Source: an uncultured Gammaproteobacteria bacterium (GTDB taxonomy: Bacteria > Patescibacteriota > Microgenomatia > UBA12405). Taken from it: a DNA stretch of 64,000 bases. The translations under genes and the position numbers were made by a program. Below the pieces are notes generated by a model. That model had not been told where the DNA came from and did no database searches. It was given only the letters and a program-made list of their open reading frames with translations. The stretch spans positions 43,705-107,704 of the forward strand of contig CAZIZX010000003.1 of NCBI GenBank assembly GCA_964544275.1. Reading direction: 5' to 3'. Positions 394 through 28,385 of this stretch are shown here, piece after piece (positions within the stretch are counted from its first letter, which is position 1; every line of letters starts with the position of its first letter).

Positions 394-2061
394 CTATTGA
401 CTTGTTAACCATATGATTATTGGTTTAACAAAATCAGGTACATTATATTCTTGGTCTTGAGCGATTAGTCTTGCCTTGACGGCTTTAGAAGAATTTGGAT
501 ATTTTTCGCATGCTTTGCAATATACAGCATCGGTTAGAAATGATTTTAATTCTTCCTCATAGTTTTTATTTAATTTCCAAACCTTTGTTTTGTCATTTTC
601 ATATCCATCAAGTAGTTCATTAAATTTTAATTCTTCCGCCTTATCTCGAATATCACTAGAATCAATGTCGTATACAATACCAAATGGAATTCCAAAAGAT
701 GAAGCAAGATCCGCAAAAGCTAATAAGTTTCGTTTACCACCAACCTCAATGATCGTTGCACCATTGTTATCAATATCGAGTACTTCTCTTTTTGCGTATT
801 CTGGAAGTGCCAATTTTTCCGTGTCACCCTCAACTAATAGGATTTTTTTAGCGAAAAACATCTCATTTCTTTCTGGATCAAGCTCTTTTCTAAACTTTTC
901 TTCCAATTCCTTTGTTTTTATAAGAGTCGACTTTGCTTTATTTGTTTGTCCATCTACTTTTTTAATCAAGGTAATTTCATCATATTCTGGTATTGTTACG
1001 AAATGGGGAGAATGGGTGGTGTATATTATTTGATTTGTTTCGCCAATTTTTCTTAGTGTGCTGTACAAAGATCGTTGCATCTGTGGATGGAGGAACATTT
1101 CTGGTTCCTCGATTAAAAAGATTGCACCAGACTTTTTTCTTTCCTCAAATGCCTTCAATATCGCTATTACTAAGGCGTTTTGGAACCCGCCACCTAGCTC
1201 TGTGGCGTTTATTTTGAAATTATTTTCTTCAACATATAAATTTAATGACTTATAAAAGTCTAACGAAGTTAGAGGGTCAAAATATATATTACAGTCCTGA
1301 TCGGTGCCTGGATTATGAATTCCTAGCTGAGCTAAAACATTATCTTTTATAGTTTTTTCTAAACCTAGAAAGTCATCTGTCCTTAAGACACTAATGGCAG
1401 ATTTTATTAGTTTATTAAATTGCTCCATCCTAGGAACTACAACCGTGGCTCCACTTCTATCTTTTACTGATATTGTATTTTGAGGATCTTGAAAGTTTTT
1501 ATCAATATTTTCAAGTAAGATTCCAAGAAGTGAGTTTCTGTAGGAAGGTAGCTGGTATTTAAGTTCTCTTTCTGTGCCTATATAAATTACTGGAATATTT
1601 TCTTGAACTTCTTGAGGAATTGTTGTTAGGGGTTGAAATTGCCTTTGTTCACCTATTTGGGGTCGCTTTGCGAGTATTTGTACTGGACCATTTTTACTAT
1701 TTAAACACTTCTTTTCCAATCTCCTCATTCCTTTATTTGGACCAATTATGTATCTCGTATACAAAAAAGAAATCTTAGGAATATCTATTGGATCAATACC
1801 AGCAAATTGTTGATATTTATATGGTTGATCAAATTCAATTAAAATTTCTATATCCTGGTCAGTTTCGCGACCAAAAACATCGTTTTCATCAAAATTGTTG
1901 ACAGTTACCCAGTCCTTACCCAAAACAGAATATATAGCTTTCAAGATGTTTGATTTTCCAACATTGTTAGCACCAATTAGAGCATTTATGTTACCAAACT
2001 CAAAAGCTATCGGTTCTTTTATTGACCTATAGCCAGATATCGTGATGTTTTTTATCTTCAT
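394..2061 (-). CDS. OLD-family ATP-dependent endonuclease (ABC-type ATPase N-domain plus C-terminal Toprim)
   Basis: N-terminal P-loop ALIGANNVGKSNIL with the SGYRSI signature of AAA15/OLD ATPases. The Q-loop and D-loop region reads FLIEEPEMFLHPQ. C-terminal Toprim-like motif is LLVEGDTEKLALPEY. Confidence 0.75.
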   Translation of the reverse strand: MKIKNITISGYRSIKEPIAFEFGNINALIGANNVGKSNILKAIYSVLGKDWVTVNNFDENDVFGRETDQDIEILIEFDQPYKYQQFAGIDPIDIPKISFLYTRYIIGPNKGMRRLEKKCLNSKNGPVQILAKRPQIGEQRQFQPLTTIPQEVQENIPVIYIGTERELKYQLPSYRNSLLGILLENIDKNFQDPQNTISVKDRSGATVVVPRMEQFNKLIKSAISVLRTDDFLGLEKTIKDNVLAQLGIHNPGTDQDCNIYFDPLTSLDFYKSLNLYVEENNFKINATELGGGFQNALVIAILKAFEERKKSGAIFLIEEPEMFLHPQMQRSLYSTLRKIGETNQIIYTTHSPHFVTIPEYDEITLIKKVDGQTNKAKSTLIKTKELEEKFRKELDPERNEMFFAKKILLVEGDTEKLALPEYAKREVLDIDNNGATIIEVGGKRNLLAFADLASSFGIPFGIVYDIDSSDIRDKAEELKFNELLDGYENDKTKVWKLNKNYEEELKSFLTDAVYCKACEKYPNSSKAVKARLIAQDQEYNVPDFVKPIIIWLTSQ

Positions 2062-2928: not shown

Positions 2929-4626
2929 TTAGCTCTCTCTAAACCAAAATATTCCTTTTTGTATTTTTTTAAATTCAGGTCGACTATGAAGAACCGCCAA
3001 AATATTTGCTGGTTTAGTATCTTTATACTTGCCGACATAGTTATATATTTGTTTCCAGTGAAGAGGAAATCCTGCTTTTGTCATACATTCCCTAACAAGT
3101 TCAACGGTTGACAGTTTACTAATACCCCATTCAGTTAATCCCCAGGTTCCTTTAACTCCACTATGAGCAAAAGTTGGAGTGGTTATGAGTATGTTGTGAG
3201 TTCTCCTCACATTAATTTTCTTATCATTACTAAATAGACGATCGTTAACAGTGTCAGTTATCTCCGTGAAATGTAATGGTTCTCCTGCTTCCTCTAAAAC
3301 TTGTGTTATAACAGAAACCCACCTTTTTGTAATCTTTGAGTGCTCAAATCTTTTAAAACGAAGATTTTCAAGTTCGGCTGAAAGCATGTTTTCAGATATT
3401 ACGAGATCAGGATTTGACTCTTCTATTCTCGGATCAATCCGACAGTATTTTAAAATAAAAAAAATCTTATTAAATCTTTCATCGCTAATTGAATTTAGTA
3501 TCGAGATGTCTTTACTCAACTCTATTAAACTAACCCCCATTTCATTTTTCCCTACTGCTTCAAGGATTTGATCCATAATTTTTTCTAATTTTACCCCGTT
3601 AAATAGCGGGGAATAAAATTTTATGTCCCCAACCATATGTGATTGAAACCATCCAAGTTCACACATTAAATCGAAAACTGAGCTACCGTCGTAATCTGTT
3701 GTTTTTAAAATATTGGGAATGATATGATCTGCGTCATCATCAGATATTAAACCGTTATTTTTATAGAGAACATCTTCAACCAAATTACATAATTGTTTTT
3801 TAACTAAAACTGAGCGATATTTCATAAATTTCAACGACTTTACCTGTATTTGACGTATACGTTCCCGGGTGATTTTATAATCTTCCCCAATTTCTTCTAA
3901 TGTCTGTTTTTCTCCTGAAAAAAGTCCGTATCTTCGCACAATAATATCCATAGCTCTACCATCACCACATTTTTGTATTAATGTATCAATTAATTTATCA
4001 GGCGGAAAACAGATATTCTCCTGAGGTTTTAATTTCAAATAGTTTGTTGTAGTTGTTTTTTGGTTTGGTCCGTCATTTTTTTGGCCATTATTAATTGATC
4101 TTTTAAAATCTTCAATAAGTTTTATTGTTTTTATACCGATATTACTTTGTTTTAATAAAAATATTTCTGAGGTCCTCATTATCTGCCCTACAGTCAAAAT
4201 ACCTGCTTTTTTAATTGCGTTTGTAGCTTTGGTAGATAAACCTATTGAATCGATCTCTATATTTTCATAATATTTAGGTTGTTCAATAACGACTTCTAAA
4301 TTATTTGAGCTAGGCTTTTCTATAACACAGTTTTTTGCAATTTTTTCTTTTATCAAAACTACCGCATTTAATGTTTTTATTCCAATCATTGGAATTTTTA
4401 CTAATTTTGACTCTGGAAAATTTATCAATTGATTCACTGATACTATTCCATGTTTTTTTAATGCATTTGCTGTTCGTATGGGAAAATTAAAGATATCTAT
4501 TGGATCATCCTCGACAATTGAATCTGGTATCTCAAAACCAATCACATTTTCTTTATCAGGTTTATTTCTATAGTCCGATGAAGGGAAAAGTTCTAAAAAA
4601 ATATTATTCAATTTCTGTGTTTTCAT
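2929..4626 (-). CDS. DNA-binding protein with three RpoA-CTD-like helix-hairpin-helix repeats and a sigma-70 region-4-like HTH
   Basis: Repeats RTANALKKHGIVSVNQL, IKTLNAVVL and TKATNAIKKAGILTVGQI resemble the RNA polymerase alpha C-terminal domain HhH. Segment DIIVRRYGLFSGEKQTLEEIGEDYKITRERIRQIQVKSLKFMK resembles sigma-70 region 4. Start is likely the internal Met (MKTQKL); the track start overlaps the upstream gene by 47 nt. Confidence 0.55.
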   Translation of the reverse strand: MKTQKLNNIFLELFPSSDYRNKPDKENVIGFEIPDSIVEDDPIDIFNFPIRTANALKKHGIVSVNQLINFPESKLVKIPMIGIKTLNAVVLIKEKIAKNCVIEKPSSNNLEVVIEQPKYYENIEIDSIGLSTKATNAIKKAGILTVGQIMRTSEIFLLKQSNIGIKTIKLIEDFKRSINNGQKNDGPNQKTTTTNYLKLKPQENICFPPDKLIDTLIQKCGDGRAMDIIVRRYGLFSGEKQTLEEIGEDYKITRERIRQIQVKSLKFMKYRSVLVKKQLCNLVEDVLYKNNGLISDDDADHIIPNILKTTDYDGSSVFDLMCELGWFQSHMVGDIKFYSPLFNGVKLEKIMDQILEAVGKNEMGVSLIELSKDISILNSISDERFNKIFFILKYCRIDPRIEESNPDLVISENMLSAELENLRFKRFEHSKITKRWVSVITQVLEEAGEPLHFTEITDTVNDRLFSNDKKINVRRTHNILITTPTFAHSGVKGTWGLTEWGISKLSTVELVRECMTKAGFPLHWKQIYNYVGKYKDTKPANILAVLHSRPEFKKIQKGIFWFRES

Positions 4627-6439
4627 CAGAACTATTATTGTATTTTTCACCTAATAAAAAATCTTCAAGATCAATAGTTGCCTTATCGTAAACTAAAGAT
4701 GCAACGCGCATTATTTCGTAATCGACCTGTTCCGCGGTTAATGTACCACCTTCTTTTTTCGCGAGGCGATAAATTGTCTCTTTAGTAAAGATATCAACAT
4801 ATCTCTGAAAGAGGTAGTTTCTCCATCTTGGGGAATCAACTCCGTATTTATCTATCAACTTTTTTGCCATTGGTTTTTCAAGATTGATCCAATACAACCC
4901 TCTTTCCACATCCTGTTGTCGCTGTTCGACAGCGAAATGACGATCAGAAAAAATAACAGGGGAACCTGGATATTCTGGATCTTCCTGTCCAGATAGTAAT
5001 ACCATTGGTGCTCTCAATCCCTTTTTCTTTTCTTCACCATCACCGCCACCCTTGCCTTGTCCAGAACCCAAACCTCCTTTTTCTTCTGATTCATGATTTG
5101 TCCCACCACCAGAACCTTCTTCTCCCTCACCCCCAGTTGAGGACCCTTTTCCAGGACCACCAAGAACTTCGGCGAATAATTTTGACATAAACTGATTCTT
5201 CCACTTATTGAGAATCTGATTAAACTCATCTGTTGCTCTGATATTTTTTTCTTCTTCCTGTTTTGCGTCTCTTTCGGCAATTTTTTCAGCAACTTCATCA
5301 ATTTTTTCGGAAATCCACTTTAGAAGAGAATCTGTTCTCTCGTTAGTAACCAGTTTTTCTCGGTCATTTTGAACACAATCATAATCAACGTCTTCTAATA
5401 TTGGACACTTACATTCTCCATAAATATATTGAGCCTGAGGATAATACTTTAAAAAACCTATTTGTTGCATATTGTAAGATGCTATTACTCCTATCTCTCC
5501 AACTATATCAACGCAGTTTAACTCAGGTTTTTTACCACCACGACCAAAGGGTTGAGCAGAAGTTTTAAGAACGAGCGACCCTTCTTCATATTTATCGTTA
5601 GACATTTTAATTTTTTTTCCATTTTCACCAGTTGATGAATCAATCAGTTCTGGAATATCGAAGAGATACGGACCCTCAAATCCTTCCATCGGCTCGATAT
5701 CTTCCATCCGAAGACTGTTCGTTAATATTTTTCCGTTATATAAAACTGAGACATTACAATATTTTAAAGGGCTACGAGCTTGCGGGTGGTATTTTAACTT
5801 TTCACAAATTCTAAAAACAGGTAACTTATTACCTACAATTTTTTTAGGTCTTATTCCCTTAACAACTGTAAACCCAGTTTCTCCATGTTCGAGTTTTCTT
5901 AAAATTGAATTAGGTATTAACAATTTATTGATCCCCGCCATTTTTAAAGCTTCGTCGATAGATACTTTTTTATCCTTTATCCCATTTGCAAAACCATATT
6001 TTCGATTTTCATTGAAACCAAAAATATTTATTTTGCCTGTTTTATATGTAATAAAATACGATTGCTGAAACATCTGTCTCATATAAAACTTTCCTCCATT
6101 CCCGTGACCACCATAGACCCTAATTTTTTTCCCTCTTTTTGCTGCGTCAGGATCTCCCCACCACTTAAAAGCTTTTTCGATATCGACAAGATCCATCCCA
6201 ACAAAATCGGTACATTCAATTACTGGTGGATTATCACTAGTACCATCAGTGAAACCAAAAATTATATATTGATCCTTATCGGACTCCCCAGCTCTGCGGT
6301 AAGCATCAACTGAGTTTTTTAACCATTCAGCAAGCCCTTTTTCATGACTAAAATTGAAAGCACCTCCTAAAATATCAAGAGTATTGTCATGGTAAAGATT
6401 CTGTTCTTCTTTAAAATTTAATAAAACTGATTGTGTCAT
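4604..6439 (-). CDS. GHKL-superfamily ATPase (MutL/MORC-like) with Gly/Glu-rich linker
   Basis: N-box-like HEKGLAEWLKNSVDAYRRAG (E..N..DA), G-box-like GGHGNGGKF, and a long GGPGKGSSTGGEGEEGSGGG... low-complexity linker. The C-terminal region is not recognised. Confidence 0.6.
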   Translation of the reverse strand: MTQSVLLNFKEEQNLYHDNTLDILGGAFNFSHEKGLAEWLKNSVDAYRRAGESDKDQYIIFGFTDGTSDNPPVIECTDFVGMDLVDIEKAFKWWGDPDAAKRGKKIRVYGGHGNGGKFYMRQMFQQSYFITYKTGKINIFGFNENRKYGFANGIKDKKVSIDEALKMAGINKLLIPNSILRKLEHGETGFTVVKGIRPKKIVGNKLPVFRICEKLKYHPQARSPLKYCNVSVLYNGKILTNSLRMEDIEPMEGFEGPYLFDIPELIDSSTGENGKKIKMSNDKYEEGSLVLKTSAQPFGRGGKKPELNCVDIVGEIGVIASYNMQQIGFLKYYPQAQYIYGECKCPILEDVDYDCVQNDREKLVTNERTDSLLKWISEKIDEVAEKIAERDAKQEEEKNIRATDEFNQILNKWKNQFMSKLFAEVLGGPGKGSSTGGEGEEGSGGGTNHESEEKGGLGSGQGKGGGDGEEKKKGLRAPMVLLSGQEDPEYPGSPVIFSDRHFAVEQRQQDVERGLYWINLEKPMAKKLIDKYGVDSPRWRNYLFQRYVDIFTKETIYRLAKKEGGTLTAEQVDYEIMRVASLVYDKATIDLEDFLLGEKYNNSSDENTEIE

Positions 6440-7421: not shown

Positions 7422-8663
7422 GTGATATGTAAATTTAAAATGCAAGGAATTATAATCAAGATTTATCTTTATTCTCAGTCTAAAATGCGGTATATTAATA
7501 ATGTGAACAATAATTTTGGAGTCATAGATTTATTTTCTGGATGTGGCGGATCTGCTGTTGGTTTTGAAAAAGCAGGTTTACCAATTAAAGTGGCTGTAGA
7601 CATTGATAAACATGCATCTGAGTCCTTTAAAATAAATTTTCCTAATGCCGAAGTATTTACTAATGATATTAGTTACATCTCAGGAAAAGAATTACTGAAA
7701 GCTGGAAAATTTAAAAATGGTAATGAAGTAATTCTAATTGCTTGTCCTCCATGTCAGGGGTTTTCAAATGCAAGACGAAATTCGGAAAGATTAACAGATC
7801 CTAGAAATAAACTTATTTATGAGTTTCTAAGAATCGTTGAAGAAATTAAACCATATGCATTTGTACTTGAAAACGTACCTGGGTTGGCAAAAAATGTCGG
7901 GAAACCAATATTTATTCAAATACTTCAAAGGTTACAAGAGCTTGGATACCAAACTGTTTATGACGTTATAGATACCGCAGACTATGGAGTACCACAAAGA
8001 AGAAAAAGGTTAGTTATGCTTGGCACAAAAGATCAAAAACTCAGACTTACTTTCCCTTCTAAAACAAATGCAGATCCAGCGATTAGTTCTGATTTACCTC
8101 CCTGGAAAACTGTTAGACAGGCAATAGATGACTTGCTTCCTATTAAAGCAGGACAAAAATTAGAAACAGATGCAATGCATATGTCTGCAAACTTATCAGA
8201 ATTAAATATAAAAAGAATGAAGCAAACTCCACATGATGGTGGTGATAGGTTGTCATGGTCTGATGATTTGGTTTTAGAGTGTCACAAAAATTTCGAAGGT
8301 CATCGTGATGTCTACGGAAGAATGAGGTGGGACTCACCTTCGCCTACAATTACTGGTGGCTGTGCTATGGTTTCAAAGGGTAGATTTGGGCATCCTGAAC
8401 AAAACAGAGCAATTTCATTAAGAGAGGCAGCCAGACTTCAGACATTTCCTGATAATTTTAAATTTATCGGAAATTTTGGTCAGATAGCAAAACAACTTGG
8501 AAATGCGGTGCCACCATTACTTGGAGAAATAGCTGCAAAAACACTTCTTAAATCAATATCTGATTTAAAGGCTGCAAAAAAATTAGTTCCAAAAAGAAAA
8601 ATATCTAGAAATATTTATAGATCAAATCAACTGAACGGGCAAATAATTAGTGGTACCATTTAA
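7422..8663 (+). CDS. DNA (cytosine-5)-methyltransferase
   Basis: Motif I DLFSGCGG, motif IV PPCQGFS (catalytic Pro-Cys), motif VI ENV, QRR.R, and C-terminal GN.V. The true start may be the internal MRYINN at 7485. Confidence 0.85.
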   Translation: MICKFKMQGIIIKIYLYSQSKMRYINNVNNNFGVIDLFSGCGGSAVGFEKAGLPIKVAVDIDKHASESFKINFPNAEVFTNDISYISGKELLKAGKFKNGNEVILIACPPCQGFSNARRNSERLTDPRNKLIYEFLRIVEEIKPYAFVLENVPGLAKNVGKPIFIQILQRLQELGYQTVYDVIDTADYGVPQRRKRLVMLGTKDQKLRLTFPSKTNADPAISSDLPPWKTVRQAIDDLLPIKAGQKLETDAMHMSANLSELNIKRMKQTPHDGGDRLSWSDDLVLECHKNFEGHRDVYGRMRWDSPSPTITGGCAMVSKGRFGHPEQNRAISLREAARLQTFPDNFKFIGNFGQIAKQLGNAVPPLLGEIAAKTLLKSISDLKAAKKLVPKRKISRNIYRSNQLNGQIISGTI

Positions 8664-8720: not shown

Positions 8721-8803
8721 TTAGGTGTTTAACCTGTAAACTCCGAAAGTAGATACACTCCAGGCACAGGGCCAGGAATATTACTACTTTAAGGAGTTTT
8801 TTT
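8721..8803 (+). promoter_or_regulatory. Highly conserved 83-nt leader upstream of ParB-MTase (copy 1); about 95% identical to 27535-27617 on the opposite strand
   Basis: ttaggtgtttaacctgtaaactccgaaagtagat...ggcacagggcc..aaggagttttttt is shared by both copies, with a 5-bp cctgt/acagg stem. It is more conserved than the adjacent coding sequence. Confidence 0.55.
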
Positions 8804-10138
8804 ATGGTCAATACACCAAACATAAAAACCGTCCTCGTAAAAGTTACAGATTTAATCCCCTCGAATTACAATCCACGAAAGTGGAGCAAAGAGCAGGTTG
8901 AACAGTTAAAGGAGAGTATTCAGCGCTTCGGAATTGTCGACCCTATCATTGCTAATATTGCCGATAATCGGAAAAATATTGTCATAGGTGGACATTTTCG
9001 TCTCGCGTTAGCCAAACAACTCGGATATAAAGAAATCCCGGTTGTTTATGTAAACATTCCAGAAATTGAGCGTGAAAGAGAGCTAAACTTACGATTAAAT
9101 AAAAATCAGGGCGAATTTGACTATAGTCTGTTGGCAAAATTCGACGAGAATATATTAAGTGGTATCGGTTTTAGTAGTGAAGAGATAGACAGTATTTTCG
9201 ACATAGACGATACCAACACCGAAATTTTTGATCTGGAAAAAGAACTAAAAAAGTTGAAGATTGATGAGATCAAATTCCAAAAAGGTGATATATATGCGTT
9301 AGGAGACTCGCGTCTGATGTGCGGTGACTCAACCATCGAGGCTGACGTAATAAAATTAATGAATGGCGAAAAAGCCTCAATGTGCTTCACTGACCCACCC
9401 TATCTTTTATCCTATCTTTACGGCAAACAACGACATGGTAATCCGACAGTTGGTTTCGGAGCTAAAAAGAATCGTCGCTATTTAGAGACCGATGTGTTGC
9501 CGGACAATTTTACTGAGCTTTGGATGGCCAATATTGCCAAAATTCAAGACGAAAACTTTTCAATAATCGTTTATGAAAATTGGAAAAACATTAGAATTAT
9601 TTGGGGAGAAATGGAGAAGTACTGGCGAGTAAAAAATATGCTCGTTTGGCATCTTCCTAACCGAAACCAAGGCTATTCGGCTAAATACAAATTTTTCTCA
9701 AAACATGACATTGCTATGGTAGGAGCATCGCTTAATAGTGATATTGAATTTAATAATGAGCTAGAAATTGATGGTCTTCAGGAGGAATACGAAACGGCTC
9801 TTTATGCCATTAGTGGTAAGCCCCAATGGGAGGGTTATAAAAAAGGAAAGAAGTACCAGCCGACAGATTTTATTGAATTTAATGCCTCAGATGAAAAAAG
9901 TTCTGGCCAGGGAATAATTTTTGGCACCAAACCAATTGAAATTCTTATCCCCTATATTAAAGCCCTCACCAGAAGAGGTGATCTGATTGTAGAACCCTTC
10001 TCTGGCAGTGGTAGTACCCTGATTGCGGCTACTAAAATGAAAAGACGGTGTTATGGTATGGAAAAGTCGCCCGTCTATGCAGAGGTCATTAAAAAACGTT
10101 GGGAGAACTTAACTGGACTAAAGGGGGTAAAAATATGA
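8804..10138 (+). CDS. ParB-like nuclease domain fused to N6-adenine/N4-cytosine DNA methyltransferase
   Basis: N-terminal ParB/Srx-like region (DPIIAN...GGHFRL). MTase motif IV DPPY (CFTDPPY) and motif I EPFSGSGST. This architecture is common in phage-encoded MTases. Confidence 0.8.
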   Translation: MVNTPNIKTVLVKVTDLIPSNYNPRKWSKEQVEQLKESIQRFGIVDPIIANIADNRKNIVIGGHFRLALAKQLGYKEIPVVYVNIPEIERERELNLRLNKNQGEFDYSLLAKFDENILSGIGFSSEEIDSIFDIDDTNTEIFDLEKELKKLKIDEIKFQKGDIYALGDSRLMCGDSTIEADVIKLMNGEKASMCFTDPPYLLSYLYGKQRHGNPTVGFGAKKNRRYLETDVLPDNFTELWMANIAKIQDENFSIIVYENWKNIRIIWGEMEKYWRVKNMLVWHLPNRNQGYSAKYKFFSKHDIAMVGASLNSDIEFNNELEIDGLQEEYETALYAISGKPQWEGYKKGKKYQPTDFIEFNASDEKSSGQGIIFGTKPIEILIPYIKALTRRGDLIVEPFSGSGSTLIAATKMKRRCYGMEKSPVYAEVIKKRWENLTGLKGVKI

Positions 10139-10557
10139 AAAATAAACAGCAGGTAATCGATCAGCTTAAATTCAACCCAATTATTCAAATCGCCTGTCAA
10201 AAATCCGGAGTCAGTCGGGCCACCTTTTATCGGTGGAGAAGCGAAGATGAAGAGTTTAAAAAACAGACTGAAACGGCAATTCAAGACGGTGTCCTATTGA
10301 TAAATGATTTAGCCGAAAGTCAATTGTTGGCGGCCATTAAGGAACAAAACTTAACCGCCATAATATTTTGGTTAAAAAATCACCATGGAGACTACGCTGA
10401 CAAGATTCAGGTCAACACTGACCGAGGATTGATAGATACCAACCTAACGCCAGAAGAAGAGAAGTTAGTTAAAAAGGCTTTAAAAATGGCCGGAATTATT
10501 AATTCACCCCTTAAACATGATCAATCAAAAGCTGGACATCAAAGAGATAATAAATAA
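10135..10557 (+). CDS. terminase small subunit-like HTH protein
   Basis: HTH IACQKSGVSRATFYRWRSEDEEFK. It lies immediately upstream of and overlaps the terminase large subunit. ATGA-coupled to the MTase stop, with SD AAGGGGGT. Confidence 0.6.
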   Translation: MKNKQQVIDQLKFNPIIQIACQKSGVSRATFYRWRSEDEEFKKQTETAIQDGVLLINDLAESQLLAAIKEQNLTAIIFWLKNHHGDYADKIQVNTDRGLIDTNLTPEEEKLVKKALKMAGIINSPLKHDQSKAGHQRDNK

Positions 10558-12079
10558 CCAAAAACTTAGAAAAGAATTGGCAGTAAATAGCCTTTATTGG
10601 TTTTTTCACATCTATCTTCACGATTATGTTCATTTTAAAACGGCTGATTTTCAAAAGGAAATCATTAGCATTGCCGAAAACCAAAACCTGAAAAATGCTT
10701 TTATTGTCGCTTTCCGTGGCTCGGCTAAATCAACCTTGGCCACTTTAGCCCTCCCTTTATGGTCAATAGTAGGTAAGTATAAAAAGAAATTTATCGTTAT
10801 TATTTCTCAAACCCAATCTCAGGCTAAACTTATTTTATCCAACATTCGCGGAGAAATTGAACACAACGAATTATTTATTAAAGATTTTGGTCATTTGAGT
10901 ACTAGTTCGACTAATAATGAGTGGAATTCGGGTACTATTGTTATTGGAAAATCAGGCAGCAGAATTAGTGTCTACTCAACAGGAGAAAGTATTCGGGGCA
11001 TCCGAAATCTATCGGCCAGACCAGATTTAATCATCGGCGACGACCTTGAAGATCTGGCTTCGGTAAAAAGCAGAGACATAAGAGAACAGACTTTTAACTG
11101 GTTTACTGGGGAAATAATGCCACTGGGAGATCCAAAAACAAAGTTAATTGTCATTGGTAACTTACTCCATGAAGATTCTTTAATGATGAAAATTAAAAAC
11201 GCAATTTGTAGTGATTCATTGAGCGGTAAATTTTACGAGTATCCATTGATTTCACCAGGTGGTGCAATTGCTTGGCCAGGAAAGTATCCAACTCAAAAGG
11301 AGATTACAGAAGAAAGGAGAAAAATTGGTAATAATATTGCTTGGCATCGAGAATATTTATTGCAGATTCTACCGCCAGAAGATCGAATAATTCATTATGA
11401 ATGGATAAAATTTTATGATCAATTGCCCCTTAACATCCAAGCCAATCGGGTTGGTTATGTAATCTCTGTTGACCCAGCAATTTCTCAAAAACATACCGCT
11501 GATAAGACTGCTATTCTAGTGGGGGTGATATATAAATCAAAAGATTTTCACTATTTATACATTACCGATATCTACAACTCACAAATTAATTTCCCCACCA
11601 CTAAAGAATTGATCGAAAAATTATCCAACACGGTGGATTCGAGACGGAAAACAACGATTTTAGTTGAACAAGTTGGTTATCAAGAAGCCCTCATACAAGC
11701 CCTTAAGACTGAAGGATACCCAGTTGAAGGAATTAATCCCCACGGGAGCGACAAGAGGGCTAGATTAAGTGTCGCCAGCAGTTATGTCAAAAACGGAAAT
11801 GTATATTTTCCTAAACATAGATCTTCTGAATTAATTGATCAATTAACCAATTTTGGAGTCGAAAAGTATGACGATTTAGCCGATGCCTTTACGATGATGG
11901 TTAACGAGGTATTTGGAACTAATAATAGTCGACTAAATTCCCAAGGTCCAATAAGTGTTAATGTAATCGGACCTTCTATGTATGGAAGGAAGCCAGGTGA
12001 AGACTGGGCCGATGCTGAAGACAGACAAATGCTAGGAAGAATAAATCGAAGAGCAAAATGGAGAAGAATAATTGGATAA
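10517..12079 (+). CDS. phage terminase large subunit
   Basis: Walker A-like FRGSAKST, and a terminase ATPase plus RNaseH-like nuclease architecture over its length. About 80% identical to 24262-25821. Confidence 0.8.
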   Translation: MINQKLDIKEIINNQKLRKELAVNSLYWFFHIYLHDYVHFKTADFQKEIISIAENQNLKNAFIVAFRGSAKSTLATLALPLWSIVGKYKKKFIVIISQTQSQAKLILSNIRGEIEHNELFIKDFGHLSTSSTNNEWNSGTIVIGKSGSRISVYSTGESIRGIRNLSARPDLIIGDDLEDLASVKSRDIREQTFNWFTGEIMPLGDPKTKLIVIGNLLHEDSLMMKIKNAICSDSLSGKFYEYPLISPGGAIAWPGKYPTQKEITEERRKIGNNIAWHREYLLQILPPEDRIIHYEWIKFYDQLPLNIQANRVGYVISVDPAISQKHTADKTAILVGVIYKSKDFHYLYITDIYNSQINFPTTKELIEKLSNTVDSRRKTTILVEQVGYQEALIQALKTEGYPVEGINPHGSDKRARLSVASSYVKNGNVYFPKHRSSELIDQLTNFGVEKYDDLADAFTMMVNEVFGTNNSRLNSQGPISVNVIGPSMYGRKPGEDWADAEDRQMLGRINRRAKWRRIIG

Positions 12080-12084
12080 CTAAT

Positions 12085-12423
12085 TTATTGTCCAGGCAAT
12101 AACGAGTCGGCCTTAATCTTCAACGCTTTACTGATTTTATATAGTACGTAAGCCGTTGGAGTATATTTCGCGTTTTCAAGATGACCTACATAGGTTCGAT
12201 AAAGACCTGCTTGATGAGACAACTCTTCCTGAGACATCCCCGATTCCTCTCTGGCTGTTTTGATTCTTTCGGCTAATTTTTTGGTAAAAACATCTTTTGA
12301 TAACACAAACTCATCATATTCAAGACTCAGAATACTGCCACGCAGTATACATAGACTAAACCGATAAAATATGTCATCATATACGTGAATTAGTGATTGA
12401 AAATAATTCACGAAAGTAAACAA
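12085..12423 (-). CDS. XRE-family HTH transcriptional regulator
   Basis: C-terminal LAERIKTAREESGMSQEELSHQAGLYRTYVGHLENAKYTPTAYVLYKISKALKI matches the Cro/C1-type HTH. The 5' end is uncertain; a GTG at V40 is possible. Confidence 0.7.
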   Translation of the reverse strand: MFTFVNYFQSLIHVYDDIFYRFSLCILRGSILSLEYDEFVLSKDVFTKKLAERIKTAREESGMSQEELSHQAGLYRTYVGHLENAKYTPTAYVLYKISKALKIKADSLLPGQ

Positions 12424-12428
12424 ATTTT

Positions 12429-13502
12429 ATGGCGATAATAATTTCTAAAAATGGGAAAAACGCAATTAAGTTAGACAAGAGTAATTTCCGTTTAGAAGAC
12501 AATCTCCAACAGTACATATACGATAATCCAGAAAGCATTCCTCTCTACGATATTAAAGAAGATATAAAACTCCTGATTTTGGCTCGGGAATTTTCCACTA
12601 AAAGTGGGCCGATAGATGCCCTGGGGGTGGATAAAGATGGTGAAATATATTTAATTGAAACCAAACTTTATAAAAACCCTGATAAAAGAACAGTTGTGGC
12701 TCAAGTCTTAGATTACGGAGCTTCACTTTGGTCAAACTTTAGAGACTTTAGAAATTTTATTGAACAAATAAACCTTCACACTAATAAGGATTTTGGTAAA
12801 ACCCTAAAACAAAGATTGACAGATTTCTTTGAGATTTCTGATGATGAAATTAATTATCTACTGGAAAACACTAGAAGAAATTTAAACGATGGCAACTTTA
12901 AATTTGTTGTTCTAATGGATCATTTACACGATCAACTTAAAGACTTAATTATTTTCCTCAACAATAACAGTGAATTTACTGTTTATGCCGTTGAATTGGA
13001 ATATTACAAACACCAGGATTTTGAAATATTAATTCCGAAACTGTATGGCTCTGAAGTGAAAAAAGATATTGGTAAATCTACGGTATCAAAAACTATTTTG
13101 ACTGATGAAGAGTTTACAAACTACTACAAAGATAGATCAGAAGAACCTCTAGTCGAAGAACTTTTACATCTCAGTAACCGAATTAATGAGAATCAGAGCG
13201 ACTACCCAAACATTATGTCTATCAAGACTCCAAAATTTTTAAACTTCTATTTGACAACCTCATTTGGGGACAAAGTCTCAATTAATTTACCAGTAAATCC
13301 TGATGCTGAAGGAGGAGGACTACAGATTTGGGGCTCCGACATAAATCGGCAAAAAGTAGAGAGTGTTTTAAATGATTCCAAACTCAAATACGAAAAAATA
13401 ATATTTAAAGGGAATAAAAGCGGTAAAATTGCCAGAATTCAACTTAAAGACATCACCATTAATCAGTTTGATGATTTCTTAAAAAAATTAGCGGTAATCT
13501 AA
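12429..13502 (+). CDS. PD-(D/E)xK-type nuclease-like protein (NucS/DUF91/DUF4263-like N-domain)
   Basis: IDALGVDKDGEIYLIETKL fits the D...E.K restriction-endonuclease-fold signature. The C-terminal half is unassigned. Confidence 0.45.
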   Translation: MAIIISKNGKNAIKLDKSNFRLEDNLQQYIYDNPESIPLYDIKEDIKLLILAREFSTKSGPIDALGVDKDGEIYLIETKLYKNPDKRTVVAQVLDYGASLWSNFRDFRNFIEQINLHTNKDFGKTLKQRLTDFFEISDDEINYLLENTRRNLNDGNFKFVVLMDHLHDQLKDLIIFLNNNSEFTVYAVELEYYKHQDFEILIPKLYGSEVKKDIGKSTVSKTILTDEEFTNYYKDRSEEPLVEELLHLSNRINENQSDYPNIMSIKTPKFLNFYLTTSFGDKVSINLPVNPDAEGGGLQIWGSDINRQKVESVLNDSKLKYEKIIFKGNKSGKIARIQLKDITINQFDDFLKKLAVI

Positions 13503-13549
13503 TCCATTCATCTCCTAGACTTCCCTAAAACCTGCGGTACAGTTGTGTC

Positions 13550-14875
13550 ATGAAGAAGAAAGAAGATGGAAAGATACAAGAAAAAGAACAAATAAAATTT
13601 TGCCTCTACGCTAGAAAATCATCCGAATCCGATGAGCGACAGGCTATGTCGATCGAATCTCAAATCAATGAGATGAAGGAGCTGGCAAAAAGAGAAAATC
13701 TACTAATTAAAGAAGTCCGACAAGAAAGTCACTCGGCCAAATTATCATCTCAAAGACCAGTCTTTAACCAATTATTGATTGATATCAGGGCTGGAGAATT
13801 TACTGGGATACTAACTTGGGCTCCTGATAGATTGAGCCGAAATGCAGGGGATCTTGGAACACTGGTAGATTTAATGGATCAGGGGAAATTACAAACGATA
13901 CGGACATATTCACAATCCTTTTCCGATAATCCAAATGAGAAATTCTTGCTAATGATTCTCTGCTCTCAGGCAAAACTGGAAAATGACAACAGAGGCATCA
14001 ATGTTAGACGTGGGATGAAAGCCAAATGCGAAGCTGGATGGCGACCCAATATGGCCCCGCTTGGATATCGTAATGTAATGAATTACAACCGGATAAGTTA
14101 CGTTGAAATTGACGAAGAAAGAGCGCCGATAATAAGGCAGATGTTTAACCGGGTGGGGAATGATGGCCATAGTGGTAAGACCATAAAAAAGTGGCTGGAT
14201 AGAATCGAATTTACCACCCGAAGCGGAAAACCATTAGCATTAAGTAAGGTTTATACAACCTTAAAAAATCCATTTTATTATGGTGAATTTGAATTTAATG
14301 GCAAGATTTATAAAGGCAAACACGAGCCCTTAATAACTAAGGAATTATTTGAAAAAGTCCAGCTCCAATTGGTGGCTCCGGATAGAGAATGGAATAAAAA
14401 AGTCTTTCCTTTCAGAAGTCTTTGCTACTGTGGAACTTGTGGCGAAAGAGTGACAGCTGAGGAAAAATATAAAAAGAATAAATCTGGTGGAGTCAGAAAA
14501 TATATCTACTATCACTGTGGTAAACATATAAATTATGACTGCGATGAACCCTATATTAGTGAGGAAGACCTGATCCAACAACTGGTCATCCACATTGATG
14601 AAATAAAATTACACGAAAAAGAACTTACCCAATATTTAAAACAGGACATTGATAAATTCCACAGATTAAGAGATGAAGTCCTTAATCAGGAAATTATAAG
14701 CGGAAAATTAATCGAACTCGATTATGATGCCTTTAACCATATTGGCAAAGATAAAATCAAGGAATATTTAATCTATGTTCTAAAATTTGGAACGGCAGAA
14801 GAAAGACTTAAAGTAATGTCAGCCATAAAAACCCGATTTATCCTACACAATAAAGAGTTAACCATTAAACAATAA
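13550..14875 (+). CDS. large serine recombinase (phage integrase type)
   Basis: Resolvase catalytic region YARKSSESDERQAMSIESQ (catalytic Ser), a recombinase domain, and zinc ribbon CYCGTCGE...YYHCG. Confidence 0.85.
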   Translation: MKKKEDGKIQEKEQIKFCLYARKSSESDERQAMSIESQINEMKELAKRENLLIKEVRQESHSAKLSSQRPVFNQLLIDIRAGEFTGILTWAPDRLSRNAGDLGTLVDLMDQGKLQTIRTYSQSFSDNPNEKFLLMILCSQAKLENDNRGINVRRGMKAKCEAGWRPNMAPLGYRNVMNYNRISYVEIDEERAPIIRQMFNRVGNDGHSGKTIKKWLDRIEFTTRSGKPLALSKVYTTLKNPFYYGEFEFNGKIYKGKHEPLITKELFEKVQLQLVAPDREWNKKVFPFRSLCYCGTCGERVTAEEKYKKNKSGGVRKYIYYHCGKHINYDCDEPYISEEDLIQQLVIHIDEIKLHEKELTQYLKQDIDKFHRLRDEVLNQEIISGKLIELDYDAFNHIGKDKIKEYLIYVLKFGTAEERLKVMSAIKTRFILHNKELTIKQ

Positions 14876-22888: not shown

Positions 22889-24217
22889 TTAATTGATTTT
22901 TATGGTGATCTGTTTGTTATGAAGTATGAACTTTGTCTTAATTGCTGACAATATTTGAATCCTATCTTCTGCCGATCCGGCTTTTAGGACATGGAGTAAG
23001 TATTCCTTTGCAGTGTCACGGTCTAGAGGTACTTTTTGCGGGTAATCAAATTGGTTTAGATTTCCGGCAAGGAATTCTTGGTGTAACACCTCACCTCTCA
23101 GCGAGTGGAATCTCTCTATTTCTTCTTTTAGTTGTTCGGTTAGTAATTTCTCATCCAATTTTATTTCATCAATATGGGCTATTAGTTGTTGGATTAAATC
23201 CTCCTCGCTGATGTAGGGTTCGTCGCAGTCATAATCCACATGTCTACCACAATGGTAGTAAACGTATTTTTTGAATCTTCCATATTTATACCTTTTGTAC
23301 TTTTCCTCCGCTGTTATCCACTCCCCACAACTACCGCACTTACATAATCCCCGGAACGGGAATAGTTTTTTATGCCATTCTTTTTCCGGGACATACAATT
23401 GCTTTTGTACCTTGTCATAAAGTTCTTTTGTTATTAATGGCTCATGATTACCTTTGTAGGTTACCCCTCCGAATTCAAACTCTCCGTAGTAATAAGTATT
23501 CTTTAATGTTGCGTAGACTTTACTCAATGCCAGAGGCTTTCCGCTTCGAGTAGTGAATCCGATTTTGTCCAGCCACATTTTTATGACTCTACCACTTTGG
23601 CCTTTTTCTCCAACCCGGTGAAACATCTGTTTTATTGTTGGTGCCCGATCTTTATCAACTTCGACATAGCTTATTCGGTTGTAACTCATGACATTGAGAT
23701 ACCCCAGTGGAGCAATGTTTGGTCTCCATCCAGCCTCACATTTGGCTTTCATTCCCCGTTTTACATTTATTCCCCGATTATCATTTTCAAGTTTTGCCTG
23801 AGAGCAGAGGATCATCAGCAGGAATTTTTCATTGGGGTTATTTGAGAATGATTGAGAAAATGTCCGGATAGTTTGCAGCTTTCCCTGATCCATCAAATCA
23901 ACCAGCGTTCCCAAGTCTCCTGCATTTCTGCTTAATCTGTCCGGTGCCCAAGTAAGTATTCCGTCAAATTCTTTCGCTCTGATATCGATTAGTAGTTGAT
24001 TAAAGACGGGTCTGAGCCTCGATGATTTAGCCGAGTGACTTTCTTGCCTGATTTCTTTAATAAATAGTTTTTCCCTTTCGGCCAGTGTTTTCATCTCGTT
24101 GATTTGAGACTCAATCGACATGGCTTGGCGTTCGTCTGATTCCGATGATTTTCGGGCATATAGGCAGTACCTTATTTGTTTTATTTCCTCTATCTTTCCA
24201 TCTTCTTTTCTCTTCAT
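22889..24217 (-). CDS. large serine recombinase (copy 2; about 80% identical to 13550-14875)
   Basis: YARKSSESDERQAMSIESQ catalytic motif and a zinc-ribbon region. Collinear with copy 1. Confidence 0.85.
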   Translation of the reverse strand: MKRKEDGKIEEIKQIRYCLYARKSSESDERQAMSIESQINEMKTLAEREKLFIKEIRQESHSAKSSRLRPVFNQLLIDIRAKEFDGILTWAPDRLSRNAGDLGTLVDLMDQGKLQTIRTFSQSFSNNPNEKFLLMILCSQAKLENDNRGINVKRGMKAKCEAGWRPNIAPLGYLNVMSYNRISYVEVDKDRAPTIKQMFHRVGEKGQSGRVIKMWLDKIGFTTRSGKPLALSKVYATLKNTYYYGEFEFGGVTYKGNHEPLITKELYDKVQKQLYVPEKEWHKKLFPFRGLCKCGSCGEWITAEEKYKRYKYGRFKKYVYYHCGRHVDYDCDEPYISEEDLIQQLIAHIDEIKLDEKLLTEQLKEEIERFHSLRGEVLHQEFLAGNLNQFDYPQKVPLDRDTAKEYLLHVLKAGSAEDRIQILSAIKTKFILHNKQITIKIN

Positions 24218-24261
24218 AACACAACTGTACCGCAGGGTTTAAGGAAGTCTAGGAGATGTAA

Positions 24262-25821
24262 TCAGCCCCAAATTCTTCGCCAGTTACCGCTAGGATTGAG
24301 ATTATCAAAAATACTTCTGTCATCAGCATCAGCCCAGTCCTCACCTCTATTGCCACAGTATGCCCTGATATTTGCTTTAATTACTACCGGGCCCTGATTG
24401 AATAGGTGAGTATTGTTTGTCCCAAATACTTCGTTAACCATCATAGTAAATGCATCAACTAGATCGTCGTATCTTTCAACTCCAAAATTGACCAATTGGT
24501 TTACCAGCTCGGCCGATCCATATCGGGGGAAAAATATACTCCCATTTTTGACATAACTACTGGAAATATTAAGTCTGGCTCTTTTATCGCCTCCATGTGG
24601 ATTGATTCCTACAGCCGGGTATCCTTCCTTTTGCAATGCCTGAATCAAGGCTTCCTGATAACCAACTTGTTCAACTAAAATCGTAGTCCTATATTTTGGG
24701 TTAACCGTATTTGACAAATTTTCAACTAAATCCTTGGTGGTTGGAAAATCGGCCTGCAGGTTATAAATATCCGTAATGTAAAGGTAATGGAAATTGGCTG
24801 ATTTATAGATTACTCCTACTAAAATGGCCGTTTTATCAGCGGTGTGCTTTTGAGAGATTGCCGGATCAAGTGAAATTATAAAACCAACACAATTGGCGGC
24901 AATATGGCTCGGTAAGGCATCGTAATACCTTATCCATTCGCTTTTAATAATCCTGTCCTCAGGTGGCAGAATTTGTAGTAGATACTCCCGATACCAAGCA
25001 ATATCATTTCCAATCTTTCTTCTTTCCTGACTGATTTCCTTTTGGGTTAGGTATTTACCAGGCCAAGCAATTTTATTATCCAATGACACTAACGGGTACT
25101 CAAAAAACTTGCCATCTAATGTATTGTTGATGATTCCATTTTTGATTTTCATCATCAAAGAGTCCTCATGAAGTAAATTACCGATCACGATTAATTTTGT
25201 CTCTCTATCGCCCAACGGCATAACATCTCCGGTGAACCAGTCGAAGTTTTGATTTCTTATTTCTTTGTTTTTAACCGAAGCTAAATCTTCCAAATCATCA
25301 CCGATAATTAAATCAGGTCTAGTAGCTAGGTGACGGATACCCCGAATACTTTCCCCGGTTGAATAAACACTTATCCTTATACCTGACTTTCCTAAAACAA
25401 TTGTGCTTGAATTCCATTCGCTGTTAGTCGGATCGGTACTTAAATGACCAAAATCTTTGATAAATAATTGGTTTGTCTCCAACTCCCGTCGGATATTTGA
25501 TAGGATTAGCCTTGCCTGTGACTGGGTTTGGCTAATGATAATAATAAAATTCTTTTTATGTTTGCCAATAATTGACCATAAGGGCAGGGCAAGGGTGGCT
25601 AGGGTTGATTTAGCTGATCCCCGGAAGGCAACGATAAAAGCGTTTTTAAGTGTTTGATCTTCGGCAATGCTAATAATTTCCTTTTGGAAGTCAGCCGTCT
25701 TAAATTTTACATAATCATATAGATAAATATGGAAAAACCAATAAAAACTATTTATCGCCAACTCTTTTCTCAGTTTTTGGTTTTTTATTATCTGTCCGAT
25801 GTCCATTTCTTGATTGATCAT
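24262..25821 (-). CDS. phage terminase large subunit (copy 2)
   Basis: FRGSAKST Walker A. About 80% identity to 10517-12079 along the full length. Confidence 0.8.
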   Translation of the reverse strand: MINQEMDIGQIIKNQKLRKELAINSFYWFFHIYLYDYVKFKTADFQKEIISIAEDQTLKNAFIVAFRGSAKSTLATLALPLWSIIGKHKKNFIIIISQTQSQARLILSNIRRELETNQLFIKDFGHLSTDPTNSEWNSSTIVLGKSGIRISVYSTGESIRGIRHLATRPDLIIGDDLEDLASVKNKEIRNQNFDWFTGDVMPLGDRETKLIVIGNLLHEDSLMMKIKNGIINNTLDGKFFEYPLVSLDNKIAWPGKYLTQKEISQERRKIGNDIAWYREYLLQILPPEDRIIKSEWIRYYDALPSHIAANCVGFIISLDPAISQKHTADKTAILVGVIYKSANFHYLYITDIYNLQADFPTTKDLVENLSNTVNPKYRTTILVEQVGYQEALIQALQKEGYPAVGINPHGGDKRARLNISSSYVKNGSIFFPRYGSAELVNQLVNFGVERYDDLVDAFTMMVNEVFGTNNTHLFNQGPVVIKANIRAYCGNRGEDWADADDRSIFDNLNPSGNWRRIWG

Positions 25822-26203
25822 GTTTTGATGTTAAATTAATAACTCCAGCCATTTGTAAGGCCTTTTTTACCAAACTCTCTTCTTCCGGCGTTAGGTTACT
25901 ATCAATCGGCTTTTGATCGGTACTGACCTGAATCTTGTCGGCATAGTCAGCATGGTGATTTTTGAGCCAAAATATTATGGCGGTTAAATTTTGATCCTTA
26001 ATTGCCGCCAGCAGTTGGCTCTCGGCTAAGTCATTGATTAACAAAACACCATCCCTGATTGCGTCTTCAGTCTGTTTCTTAAAATCTTCATCTTCGCTAC
26101 GCCAGCGATAGAATGTAGCCCGACTAACTCCGGATTTTTGACAGGCGATTTGAATAATCGGATTTATTTTTAATTGTTCCAATACTTGGGACTTATTTTT
26201 CAT
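25748..26203 (-). CDS. terminase small subunit-like HTH protein (copy 2)
   Basis: IACQKSGVSRATFYRWRSEDEDFK, with ATGA coupling to the upstream MTase stop. Confidence 0.6.
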   Translation of the reverse strand: MKNKSQVLEQLKINPIIQIACQKSGVSRATFYRWRSEDEDFKKQTEDAIRDGVLLINDLAESQLLAAIKDQNLTAIIFWLKNHHADYADKIQVSTDQKPIDSNLTPEEESLVKKALQMAGVINLTSKHDQSRNGHRTDNKKPKTEKRVGDK

Positions 26204-27534: not shown

Positions 27535-27617
27535 AAAAAAACTCCTTAAAGTAGTAATATTCCCGGCCCTGTGCCTGGAACGGATCTACTTTCGGAGTTT
27601 ACAGGTTAAACACCTAA
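27535..27617 (-). promoter_or_regulatory. Conserved 83-nt leader upstream of ParB-MTase (copy 2)
   Basis: Reverse complement is about 95% identical to 8721-8803. Confidence 0.55.
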
Positions 27618-27665: not shown

Positions 27666-28385
27666 TTACGCTTTAATCTGCCACCCAAGAAGCAATTCCA
27701 ATCTTTCCTTTATCTTCTCCCAATCAGATAACTTGGATTTCAGTAGCGTAAAAAAGGCTTCGGAATGATTTTTATGTTTCATATGGCAAAGTTCGTGGGT
27801 AATCACATAATCAATACAGACAATGGGAGCTTTTATTAGTTCCGGATTTAGGTAGATTTTTTTGGTACCCAAAAAACTTCCCCATCTTTTAGCCATCTTT
27901 CTAATTTCTAATTCAGGGACAAAGTTGTAATTAAAGTTTTTCTGTACTTCTACATATCTTTTTCTAAATACTTCTGAATTCTTTTGCAGGTACCATTCCT
28001 CTAATATTTTTCTGTTATGAAATCCATTTGATACTTTACTTTGAGTTTTTAATAGCATTACGCCTTTAGCTATAGACACTCCTTCGTCCTTGGACCGTAT
28101 GACCTTAAGTTTATATTGTTTGCCTAAATAAAGGAAACTTTCACCAGAGATATATTCTTTTTCATAAATTTTTGTCTGGTATTTTTTAAAATACTTAAGC
28201 TGTTTTTCCAACCACAACCACTTTTTACGAAGGAAAGTTTGCAACCTCTCTTGATTGGCTGATTCAGGTGCTTTTAATATAATGCTTAAATCCGGTCGTA
28301 CGGTTAGACTTAACGATTTTCTGTCTTCCCGGATAAGTGCGTAACTATATTCATATTTACCAAATACGAACTTCTTGATTTTCAT
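27666..28385 (-). CDS. DUF45/YgjP-like zinc metallopeptidase (M48-like), Type I R-M associated
   Basis: HEXXH motif in ITHELCHMKHKNHSEAF. The position after hsdR is typical for this family. Confidence 0.7.
   Translation of the reverse strand: MKIKKFVFGKYEYSYALIREDRKSLSLTVRPDLSIILKAPESANQERLQTFLRKKWLWLEKQLKYFKKYQTKIYEKEYISGESFLYLGKQYKLKVIRSKDEGVSIAKGVMLLKTQSKVSNGFHNRKILEEWYLQKNSEVFRKRYVEVQKNFNYNFVPELEIRKMAKRWGSFLGTKKIYLNPELIKAPIVCIDYVITHELCHMKHKNHSEAFFTLLKSKLSDWEKIKERLELLLGWQIKA

Follow-up and report, generated by a model that had tools for sequence, protein, structure and literature searches.

A NucS-like nuclease gene with a divergent XRE regulator in a variable slot between the terminase and recombinase genes of a module from a Candidate Phyla Radiation bacterium

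The DNA analyzed here (the window) is a 64-kb stretch of contig CAZIZX010000003.1, from a bacterium of the Candidate Phyla Radiation (CPR). The window has two inverted, diverged copies of a four-gene module that consists of a ParB-methyltransferase, TerS, TerL and a serine recombinase (Rec). In copy 1 an insert of about 1.43 kb separates TerL from Rec, and this insert is absent from copy 2. It carries an open reading frame (ORF) for a 357 amino acid (aa) protein with a nuclease fold and, on the opposite strand, a gene for an XRE-family regulator. The insert is best explained as a cassette of defence-type cargo that occupies an exchangeable TerL-Rec slot in a mobile-element-like module and encodes a PDC-S11-like nuclease kept in check by XRE. 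The probability of this reading is put at about 0.6.

The insert and its slot

The features that delimit the slot are as follows.

10517–12079, plus strand: TerL copy 1 (phrog_38, E-value = 1.3e-87; Terminase_6C); its stop codon is the left edge of the slot
12080–13505/13507: cargo cassette of ~1.43 kb, carried by copy 1 only
13506–13549, plus strand: recombinase-upstream motif copy 1 (TAGACT, 16 nt, TACAGT, 6 nt, ATG); right edge of the slot
13550–14875, plus strand: large serine recombinase copy 1 (Resolvase, Recombinase and Zn_ribbon_recom; phrog_95 integrase, E-value = 3.7e-68)
22889–24217, minus strand: large serine recombinase copy 2, 75% identical to copy 1
24218–24261, minus strand: recombinase-upstream motif copy 2, which abuts the TerL copy 2 stop codon; empty slot
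24262–25821, minus strand: TerL copy 2, 75% identical to TerL copy 1

The original prediction, which was made from the sequence of the window, placed the cassette exactly between the TerL stop codon and an element next to the recombinase gene, and in copy 1 only. Comparison of the two copies bears this out at both edges. DNA homology between the copies (~71%–78% identity) covers positions 8721–~12079 and 13509–14875 of copy 1 and positions 22889–24258 and 24262–27617 of copy 2. It ends at the TerL stop codon and restarts at ~13506–13509; thus the insert comprises positions 12080–13505/13507. In copy 2 there are zero bases between the TerL stop codon (24262–24264) and the 44-nt motif (24218–24261), which is followed by the recombinase ATG, so the direct contact that had been described there is correct. 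The same motif in copy 1 sits 1.43 kb past the TerL stop codon. The two motif copies are identical at 39 of 44 positions, which is above the identity of the flanking coding arms (~75%–78%). The GC content of the cassette is 0.331, compared with 0.365–0.367 in the flanking TerL and Rec genes.

The arrangement methyltransferase-TerS-TerL-[slot]-Rec recurs across CPR bacteria. Related loci (given L numbers) were collected with the recombinase family, of which GTDB genomes contain 548+ relatives, as anchor (80 loci) and with TerL against IMG/VR (47 loci). In a tblastn survey, 53 pairs of TerL and Rec on one strand were obtained. Every comparison with relatives has the TerL stop codon as the left edge. 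Slot length ranges from <100 nt to ~9.4 kb, with the following distribution of TerL-Rec gaps.

<300 nt: 17 pairs
300–1000 nt: 7 pairs
1–3 kb: 16 pairs
>3 kb (maximum ~9.4 kb): 13 pairs

The nuclease is found in 9 of the 53 slots, and defence and exclusion genes prevail among the cargo elsewhere. Matches to 167 PADLOC models (E ≤ 1e-5) were obtained with 58 slot proteins; type IIG restriction-modification (RM), PLD-helicase, DrmD-like, PDC-S53 and PDC-S68 are among these models. Representative slot contents are listed here.

L051, L076: type IIG RM and PLD-Snf2 helicase
L074: GmrSD, EcoRI methylase, SF1 helicase and the nuclease
L082: Ltp superinfection-exclusion lipoprotein
L071, L058, L033: tRNA_anti-like and DUF4352 surface proteins
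L021: DUF2726
L003/L004: XRE, the nuclease, S26 peptidase and a 185-aa ORF

The slot had been proposed to hold variable cargo, and this is evident from its closest relatives. L003/L004 have a Rec that is 96% and a nuclease that is 95% identical to those of the window, and they carry two additional genes between nuclease and Rec. In L010, Rec is 97% identical to that of the window and the slot ORFs are wholly different. The nuclease is missing from elements with a similar backbone, i.e. copy 2 (TerL and Rec 75% identical) and L019 (TerL 72%). In L001/L002, on the other hand, the nuclease is 75%–79% identical to that of the window, TerL only 39%–40% and Rec 49%–53%. These comparisons of sequences suggest that cargo moves independently of the backbone. 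The nuclease lies between TerL and Rec in L001 and L002, and directly 5′ of Rec in L007, which has no TerL. It is also found 5′ of the methyltransferase (L112, L117) and inverted within the slot (L118, L077). In L005, L008 and L009 it occurs without TerL or Rec, beside BsaWI and a methyltransferase, MmeI-type RM, or ThsB-TIR genes.

The likeness to prophage and satellite defence hotspots (P2/P4; phage-inducible chromosomal islands, PICI) that had been pointed out before is supported. As in those hotspots, conserved flanks bracket a variable site that is enriched in defence genes. Two traits of a defence hotspot are present, i.e. conserved flanks with differing content in close relatives (copy 1, copy 2, L003/L004 and L010) and cargo enriched in known or candidate defence genes. 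The carrier is different from P2/P4 and PICI. It is a 4–5 gene module, which this analysis encountered in CPR genomes and IMG/VR contigs only, and no capsid, portal or replication genes were detected beside it in the loci examined, where other flanking ORFs of related loci were not scanned. The cassette fits the established picture of mobile-element defence hotspots; the CPR-wide carrier module and its association with LOOT RNA (described below) are more novel. A description of a CPR terminase/serine-recombinase element was not found in the literature.

The motif at the right edge is nearly always present as one copy immediately 5′ of Rec (>50 loci). An nhmmer profile of the motif locates a single copy per module in the window, at 13508–13550 (plus strand) and 24258–24218 (minus strand). 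Its consensus is ATTCATCTCCTAGACTTC-N-CTGCGGTACAGTTGTGTC-ATG. The hexamers TAGACT/TTGACT and TACAGT/TATAGT/TACCTT are kept 16 nt apart in >50 loci, and the sequence of the spacer varies. The distance from the end of the second hexamer to the recombinase ATG is 6 nt in the window, and there is no Shine-Dalgarno sequence. From these properties the motif is probably the recombinase's own promoter, and the recombinase mRNA is possibly leaderless. Some loci have the motif in duplicate or ~200 nt away from the start codon, and in L001-type elements the −10-like hexamer is poor and the motif is duplicated around the cargo.

The motif was also considered as a phage attachment site (attP). This is unlikely, because the motif lies within contiguous integrated modules and has no dyad symmetry. 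L001 (7719–7760 and 9090–9133) and L002 (7719–7760 and 9095–9136) have a second motif copy, CTTGACTT-N12-TTGCGTCAT, after the TerL stop codon, and their cargo of LOOT RNA and nuclease gene is therefore bracketed by direct repeats. Because of this bracketing the motif could act as a recombination site, and there are hints that it may take part in cargo insertion. No convincing target-site duplication or flanking repeats were seen around the insert in the window, where the left junction resembles the motif weakly.

The 357 amino acid nuclease

The ORF and its two domains are located as follows.

12429–13502, plus strand: 357-aa ORF, which contains IDALGVDKDGEIYLIETKL
12429–13052, plus strand, residues ~1–208: NucS-like PD-(D/E)xK nuclease domain (catalytic D63, E77 and K79; Q92xxxY96)
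13092–13499, plus strand, residues 222–357: C-terminal alpha/beta domain (AlphaFold2 (AF2) model of this domain alone: predicted local distance difference test score (pLDDT) 94.2, predicted template modelling score 0.89)

The nuclease fold of this protein, as originally predicted, is well supported. D63, E77, K79, Q92 and Y96 are invariant in an alignment of 50 sequences that are 47%–97% identical, and D, ExK and QxxxY constitute the signature of RecB-type nucleases. Judged from these residues, the protein is probably catalytically competent. The PADLOC model PDC-S11 (PDLC04916) matches residues 9–210 (E-value = 6.5e-16, profile positions 11–187 of 358). The same model matches 50 of 50 nuclease homologs; PDC-S18 and PDC-S02 match the 357-aa protein more weakly. 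The Pfam NucS_C match is below threshold (17.5 bits, cut-off 24), and this match recurs in 29 of 50 family members. The NCBIfam NucS model NF003270 gives an E-value of 6e-6 and 25.4 bits, with a cut-off of 216. The best match in a sequence search of the PDB is NucS 2vld (E-value = 0.16). One homolog is labelled "DUF91 domain-containing" in UniRef, and DUF91 we take to be the former name of the NucS family. Of the three families that had been named as candidates, NucS is matched, and Shedu (DUF4263/SduA) and Cap4 are not (Pfam scan at E ≤ 0.01, PADLOC scan at E ≤ 0.1). The NucS_N domain gave no match in the Pfam scan of the 357-aa protein, and no phage family in PHROGs matches it.

The full-length AF2 model (pLDDT 78.8) displays a short beta N-terminus, a PD-(D/E)xK core, a disordered linker (residues 209–221) and the C-terminal domain. 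The core comprises residues ~46–206 and includes a helical insertion at 87–154. A Foldseek comparison with the PDB places NucS/EndoMS (2vld) first (probability 0.97, E-value ~9e-3), followed by the PD-(D/E)xK nucleases Exo5, AdnAB, Card1 and BspD6I.

The protein shares with NucS/EndoMS (PF01939; PDB 2vld, 5gke) the RecB-like PD-(D/E)xK core with D, ExK and QxxxY. It differs in that its scores are far below the NucS family thresholds, its nuclease domain is N-terminal, whereas that of NucS is C-terminal and comes after a DNA-binding/dimerisation domain, and it has the extra helical insertion (87–154) and a novel C-terminal domain. Its gene context is accessory and mobile.

The PDC-S11 protein of E. 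coli has been renamed Madara and is a single-protein, modification-dependent anti-phage nuclease (bioRxiv 10.64898/2026.09.05.749240). An N-terminal NucS-like nuclease is followed in it by a linker and an EVE-like domain at the C-terminus; the protein is reported to restrict glucosyl-hydroxymethylcytosine T4 but not T4(C), and its D63A mutant to be inactive (bioRxiv 10.64898/2026.09.05.749240). The protein in the window is also a single protein of ~360 aa with a nuclease-linker-C-terminal layout, and its catalytic Asp is likewise at position 63. However, the homology is confined to the nuclease domain, and the hidden Markov model alignment goes no further than profile position 187 of 358. In sequence, the C-terminal domain is not related to that of Madara, and it has no EVE/PUA-like (DUF4268-type) structural match. 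The host differs as well, being a CPR bacterium, and genes of the family are preceded by a divergent XRE gene or by LOOT RNA.

An EVE/PUA-like reader was tried as the identity of the C-terminal domain, by analogy with Madara, and was rejected; the domain-only AF2 model has no significant match in the PDB or BFVD. With Foldseek nothing is below an E-value of 0.1 (PDB) or 0.02 (BFVD), and a profile search of PDB sequences also yields nothing significant.

A family profile search of 1.84 billion representatives detected 3962 relatives of the nuclease, 311 of them at E ≤ 1e-30. There are >2200 homologs, nearly all of CPR/Microgenomates type. Most of the 50%-identity representatives align over profile positions 1 to ~250 only, despite a length of ~360 aa; the C-terminal domain is thus swapped within the family. 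This domain is presumed to be a target-sensing or specificity module, of which such a swap pattern would be expected.

The XRE gene and LOOT RNA as alternative front ends

The left part of the cassette has two features.

12085–12306, minus strand: XRE-family HTH regulator, 73 aa from GTG 12306 (probable start); HTH_3, E-value = 1.2e-12
12307–12428: divergent control region with a perfect 9-nt inverted repeat, CGTGAATTA-N11-TAATTCACG, at 12384–12392 and 12404–12412

The insert thus contains the minus-strand XRE gene and the divergent 357-aa ORF that had been reported. The XRE gene is convergent with TerL, and its stop codon is 5 nt past that of TerL. Its product matches the PADLOC models capH (7e-13) and RM "control protein" (2e-11); no CapP-like protease is adjacent to it in the window. 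The two start codons had been placed 5 nt apart, but this applies only to the longest XRE ORF (12085–12423, from TTG 12423). XRE homologs at the equivalent slot position are 70–80 aa long and GTG 12306 gives 73 aa; a divergent intergenic region of ~122 nt (12307–12428) is therefore likelier.

The inverted repeat is located 17–45 nt 5′ of the nuclease ATG, and a 9-nt arm was reached in only 19 of 2000 shuffles. XRE cassettes of another subtype have a palindrome of their own, GTTAGCA...TGCTAAC, at the equivalent position. The inverted repeat is a candidate operator for XRE, and the simplest reading would be that XRE represses the nuclease promoter. A small HTH regulator encoded divergently from the nuclease gene would also be in keeping with the arrangement of restriction genes regulated by controller proteins.

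Of the 53 slots, 13 have an opposite-strand XRE gene that abuts the TerL stop codon, five of them together with the nuclease and eight with other cargo. XRE was therefore rejected as an obligate partner of the nuclease, all the more as seven nuclease genes have a LOOT RNA instead. It was rejected as a backbone gene too, since it is missing from short (<300 nt) slots. Occurring with varied cargo yet absent from the <300-nt slots, XRE is a common front end of cargo cassettes. The regulator-nuclease pair that had been postulated is real insofar as both genes are present, but the pairing is facultative and not that of a fixed two-gene system.

In cassettes that lack XRE, a structured RNA, LOOT (RF03000), is found 5′ of the nuclease gene in place of XRE. 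Rfam scores of LOOT are 73–83 bits in L001, L002 and L007 (gathering threshold 46.4). A covariance model built from these three copies detected 12 more loci. The copies are located as follows.

L001: 7813–7942
L002: 7817–7941
L007: 7817–7943
L074: 2960–3082
L046: 2948–3080
L043: 7253–7387
L085: 9606–9725, minus strand
L086: 11377–11503
L095, L112, L093, L117, L094, L118, L110: copies on viral contigs

LOOT lies ~58–127 nt 5′ of a co-oriented gene, in or beside the TerL-Rec slot, in 11 of 11 loci whose neighbors were checked. In seven of these the gene is the nuclease; the remainder are genes for DUF4352-like secreted proteins or a zinc-ribbon membrane protein. The only RNAs that an Rfam scan of the window shows are tRNAs; neither LOOT nor any other RNA is seen within the cassette or close to it. 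No usable description of the LOOT motif was found in the literature.

In L043 (6284–7183) and L046 (1981–2880), an unrelated 299-aa ORF is at the TerL position between TerS and the slot. It is undetected by TerL tblastn, and it is followed by the LOOT RNA and a DUF4352-like gene.

Role of the cassette and surroundings of the modules

The proposed function of the cassette is as follows. The C-terminal domain would recognize a feature of incoming DNA, for instance an unusual structure or a modified base. The DNA so recognized would then be cut by the nuclease domain, in the manner of Type IV-like restriction. Cleavage of phage DNA would protect both the host and the element. The divergent XRE would bind the inverted repeat in the 122-nt region and restrain expression of the nuclease, as controller (C) proteins do. 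Cargo may be gained and lost via homologous recombination between the conserved flanks of related elements, and by inserting 5′ of the probable recombinase promoter it would leave expression of the recombinase undisturbed.

An anti-phage role appears to be the probable one for the nuclease, given its homology and genomic context. To this extent the anti-phage module considered plausible in the original prediction is supported; the addiction pairing offered beside it is less so. Any specific trigger of the nuclease is proposed with less confidence than the anti-phage role itself. That the nuclease depends on DNA modification is a guess, because Foldseek finds no EVE, PUA or other modified-base reader match for the C-terminal domain.

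This missing reader match is one of several observations that weigh against the proposed function. BLASTP alignment with a bona fide enterobacterial (E. coli) PDC-S11 covers residues 19–105 only (the reference is a DUF4268 protein, E-value = 6e-169 to PDLC04913), and the shared nuclease domain is the only tie of the subfamily to characterized PDC-S11. That the nuclease is more conserved than the backbone may be explained by stronger purifying selection or slower evolution instead of transfer. The difference between the two copies can be read in both directions, as an insertion in copy 1 or a deletion in copy 2. In regard to regulation, a generic promoter/terminator scan of the region gave matches not above shuffled expectation, the right arm of the inverted repeat is conserved at 6 of 9 positions in the sister locus L003, and XRE is not specific to the nuclease, as shown by the eight loci with other cargo and the seven nuclease genes behind LOOT RNA.

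Three other explanations are less well supported. The gene may be a free-standing homing endonuclease that cuts the empty TerL/Rec junction and is copied in by recombinational repair, i.e. a selfish gene. PD-(D/E)xK homing endonucleases exist, and a precise presence/absence between two conserved genes with intact flanks would be in accordance with homing, as would the bracketing of the L001/L002 cargo by direct repeats of the recombinase-upstream motif. In addition, elements with backbone identities of only 36%–53% have the nuclease in this same slot at 52%–85% identity. Yet the slot of copy 2 is empty in the same genome despite a nearly identical junction motif, and the nuclease occurs away from TerL/Rec (L005, L008, L009), 5′ of the methyltransferase and in inverted orientation. 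Since the slot holds many unrelated cargos, its variability needs no nuclease-specific homing, and the closest characterized relative of the nuclease is a defence protein. Homing is therefore considered unlikely. Slightly less likely again is that the nuclease is the restriction half of an RM or addiction pair, with the ParB-N6/N4 methyltransferase (8804–10138) or a C5 methyltransferase (7422–8663) as partner and XRE as C-protein. The methyltransferases are constant in the module, XRE matches controller-protein models of RM systems, and homologs of the nuclease are frequently near methyltransferase genes. But copy 2 and most elements have methyltransferase(s) and no nuclease, and in L009 and L007 no methyltransferase is adjacent to the nuclease. 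Phages commonly have a ParB-methyltransferase beside their terminase genes and no cognate nuclease to go with it, and the characterized relative is modification-dependent, not modification-blocked.

A function in DNA metabolism, such as NucS/EndoMS-like repair, a structure-specific nuclease or an accessory/directionality factor of the serine recombinase, is the least probable of the three. The catalytic domain is NucS-like and belongs to a large, well-conserved CPR family (>2200 homologs), and the nuclease gene directly precedes the recombinase gene in L001, L002, L007, L025 and the window, where no terminator is predicted to separate the two. Against this, the NucS scores are far below the cut-offs (17.5 versus 24 bits in Pfam, 25 versus 216 in NCBIfam), the NucS N-terminal domain is missing and the domain order is different. 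Most recombinases of the family are without the nuclease (it is present in 9 of 53 slots), and in L003, L028, L039 and L042 other genes intervene between nuclease and Rec. The genomic contexts are variable, defence-rich and not syntenic, and the swapping of C-terminal domains is less in keeping with a housekeeping gene than with a conflict gene. Defence-type cargo in an exchangeable slot is the preferred explanation.

A wider interpretation is tentative and rather doubtful. The cassette might be one loaded state of undescribed, CPR-wide, satellite-like, capsid-less terminase elements, in which the TerL-Rec slot and the flank upstream of the methyltransferase would be the main shuttle of defence genes, gated by XRE or LOOT. 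In that case LOOT would for the first time be placed in a functional context, controlling toxic cargo such as the NucS-like nuclease either as a cis-acting leader or as a small RNA.

To our knowledge, CPR/Patescibacteria have tiny genomes, few recognized defence systems and almost no characterized mobile elements. The hotspot in these bacteria is defined by sequence (terL stop codon to recombinase motif) and collects restriction enzymes, exclusion proteins and NucS-like nucleases across dozens of lineages; new defence genes could be sought there from their position only. The nuclease family is a natural domain-swap set for the study of C-terminal sensing, and with XRE and LOOT alternating 5′ of one gene, the function of an orphan RNA becomes open to testing.

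The remaining genes of the two modules are given below.

8804–10138, plus strand (copy 1), and 26200–27534, minus strand (copy 2): ParB_N and N6/N4 methyltransferase, 90% protein identity
10099–10557, plus strand (copy 1), and 25748–26203, minus strand (copy 2): TerS-like

The methyltransferase of the module matches phrog_498. A leader of ~85 nt, 5′ of both ParB-methyltransferase genes (8721–8803 and 27535–27617), is conserved far above the coding arms and is also kept in L014 and L019 (82%–87%). It has no Rfam match and could be a promoter, a leader or a packaging-related site.

The regions 5′ of the two methyltransferase genes are not homologous to each other, and both are defence-rich. Outward of copy 1 are an OLD-family AAA_15 ATPase with TOPRIM nuclease (394–2061, minus strand) and the C5 methyltransferase (7422–8663, plus strand); the segment 394–7092 (minus strand) also holds several ORFs without a family match (313, 611 and 218 aa). 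Adjoining the OLD-family nuclease is an unusual fusion, a 573-aa protein (2929–4650, minus strand) with two RNA-polymerase alpha C-terminal domains, sigma-70 region 4 and HARE-HTH. Outward of copy 2 (27666–36549, minus strand), YgjP, DUF4145 and NYN genes are interspersed among those of a type I RM operon. The interval in L013 that is equivalent to the region upstream of the methyltransferase is ~3.5 kb, compared with ~10 kb in the window.

Between the inverted modules is a host segment of ~8 kb with YibE/F, a deacetylase, three tRNAs and a CoA-binding protein. The inverted recombinase motifs (13508–13550 and 24218–24258) could in principle permit inversion of the intervening segment. The double inverted-module arrangement is also found in the related genome L013, and one IMG/VR contig (L104/L105) holds two modules. 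Placement of the recombinase near tRNA-Ser is common to the relatives.

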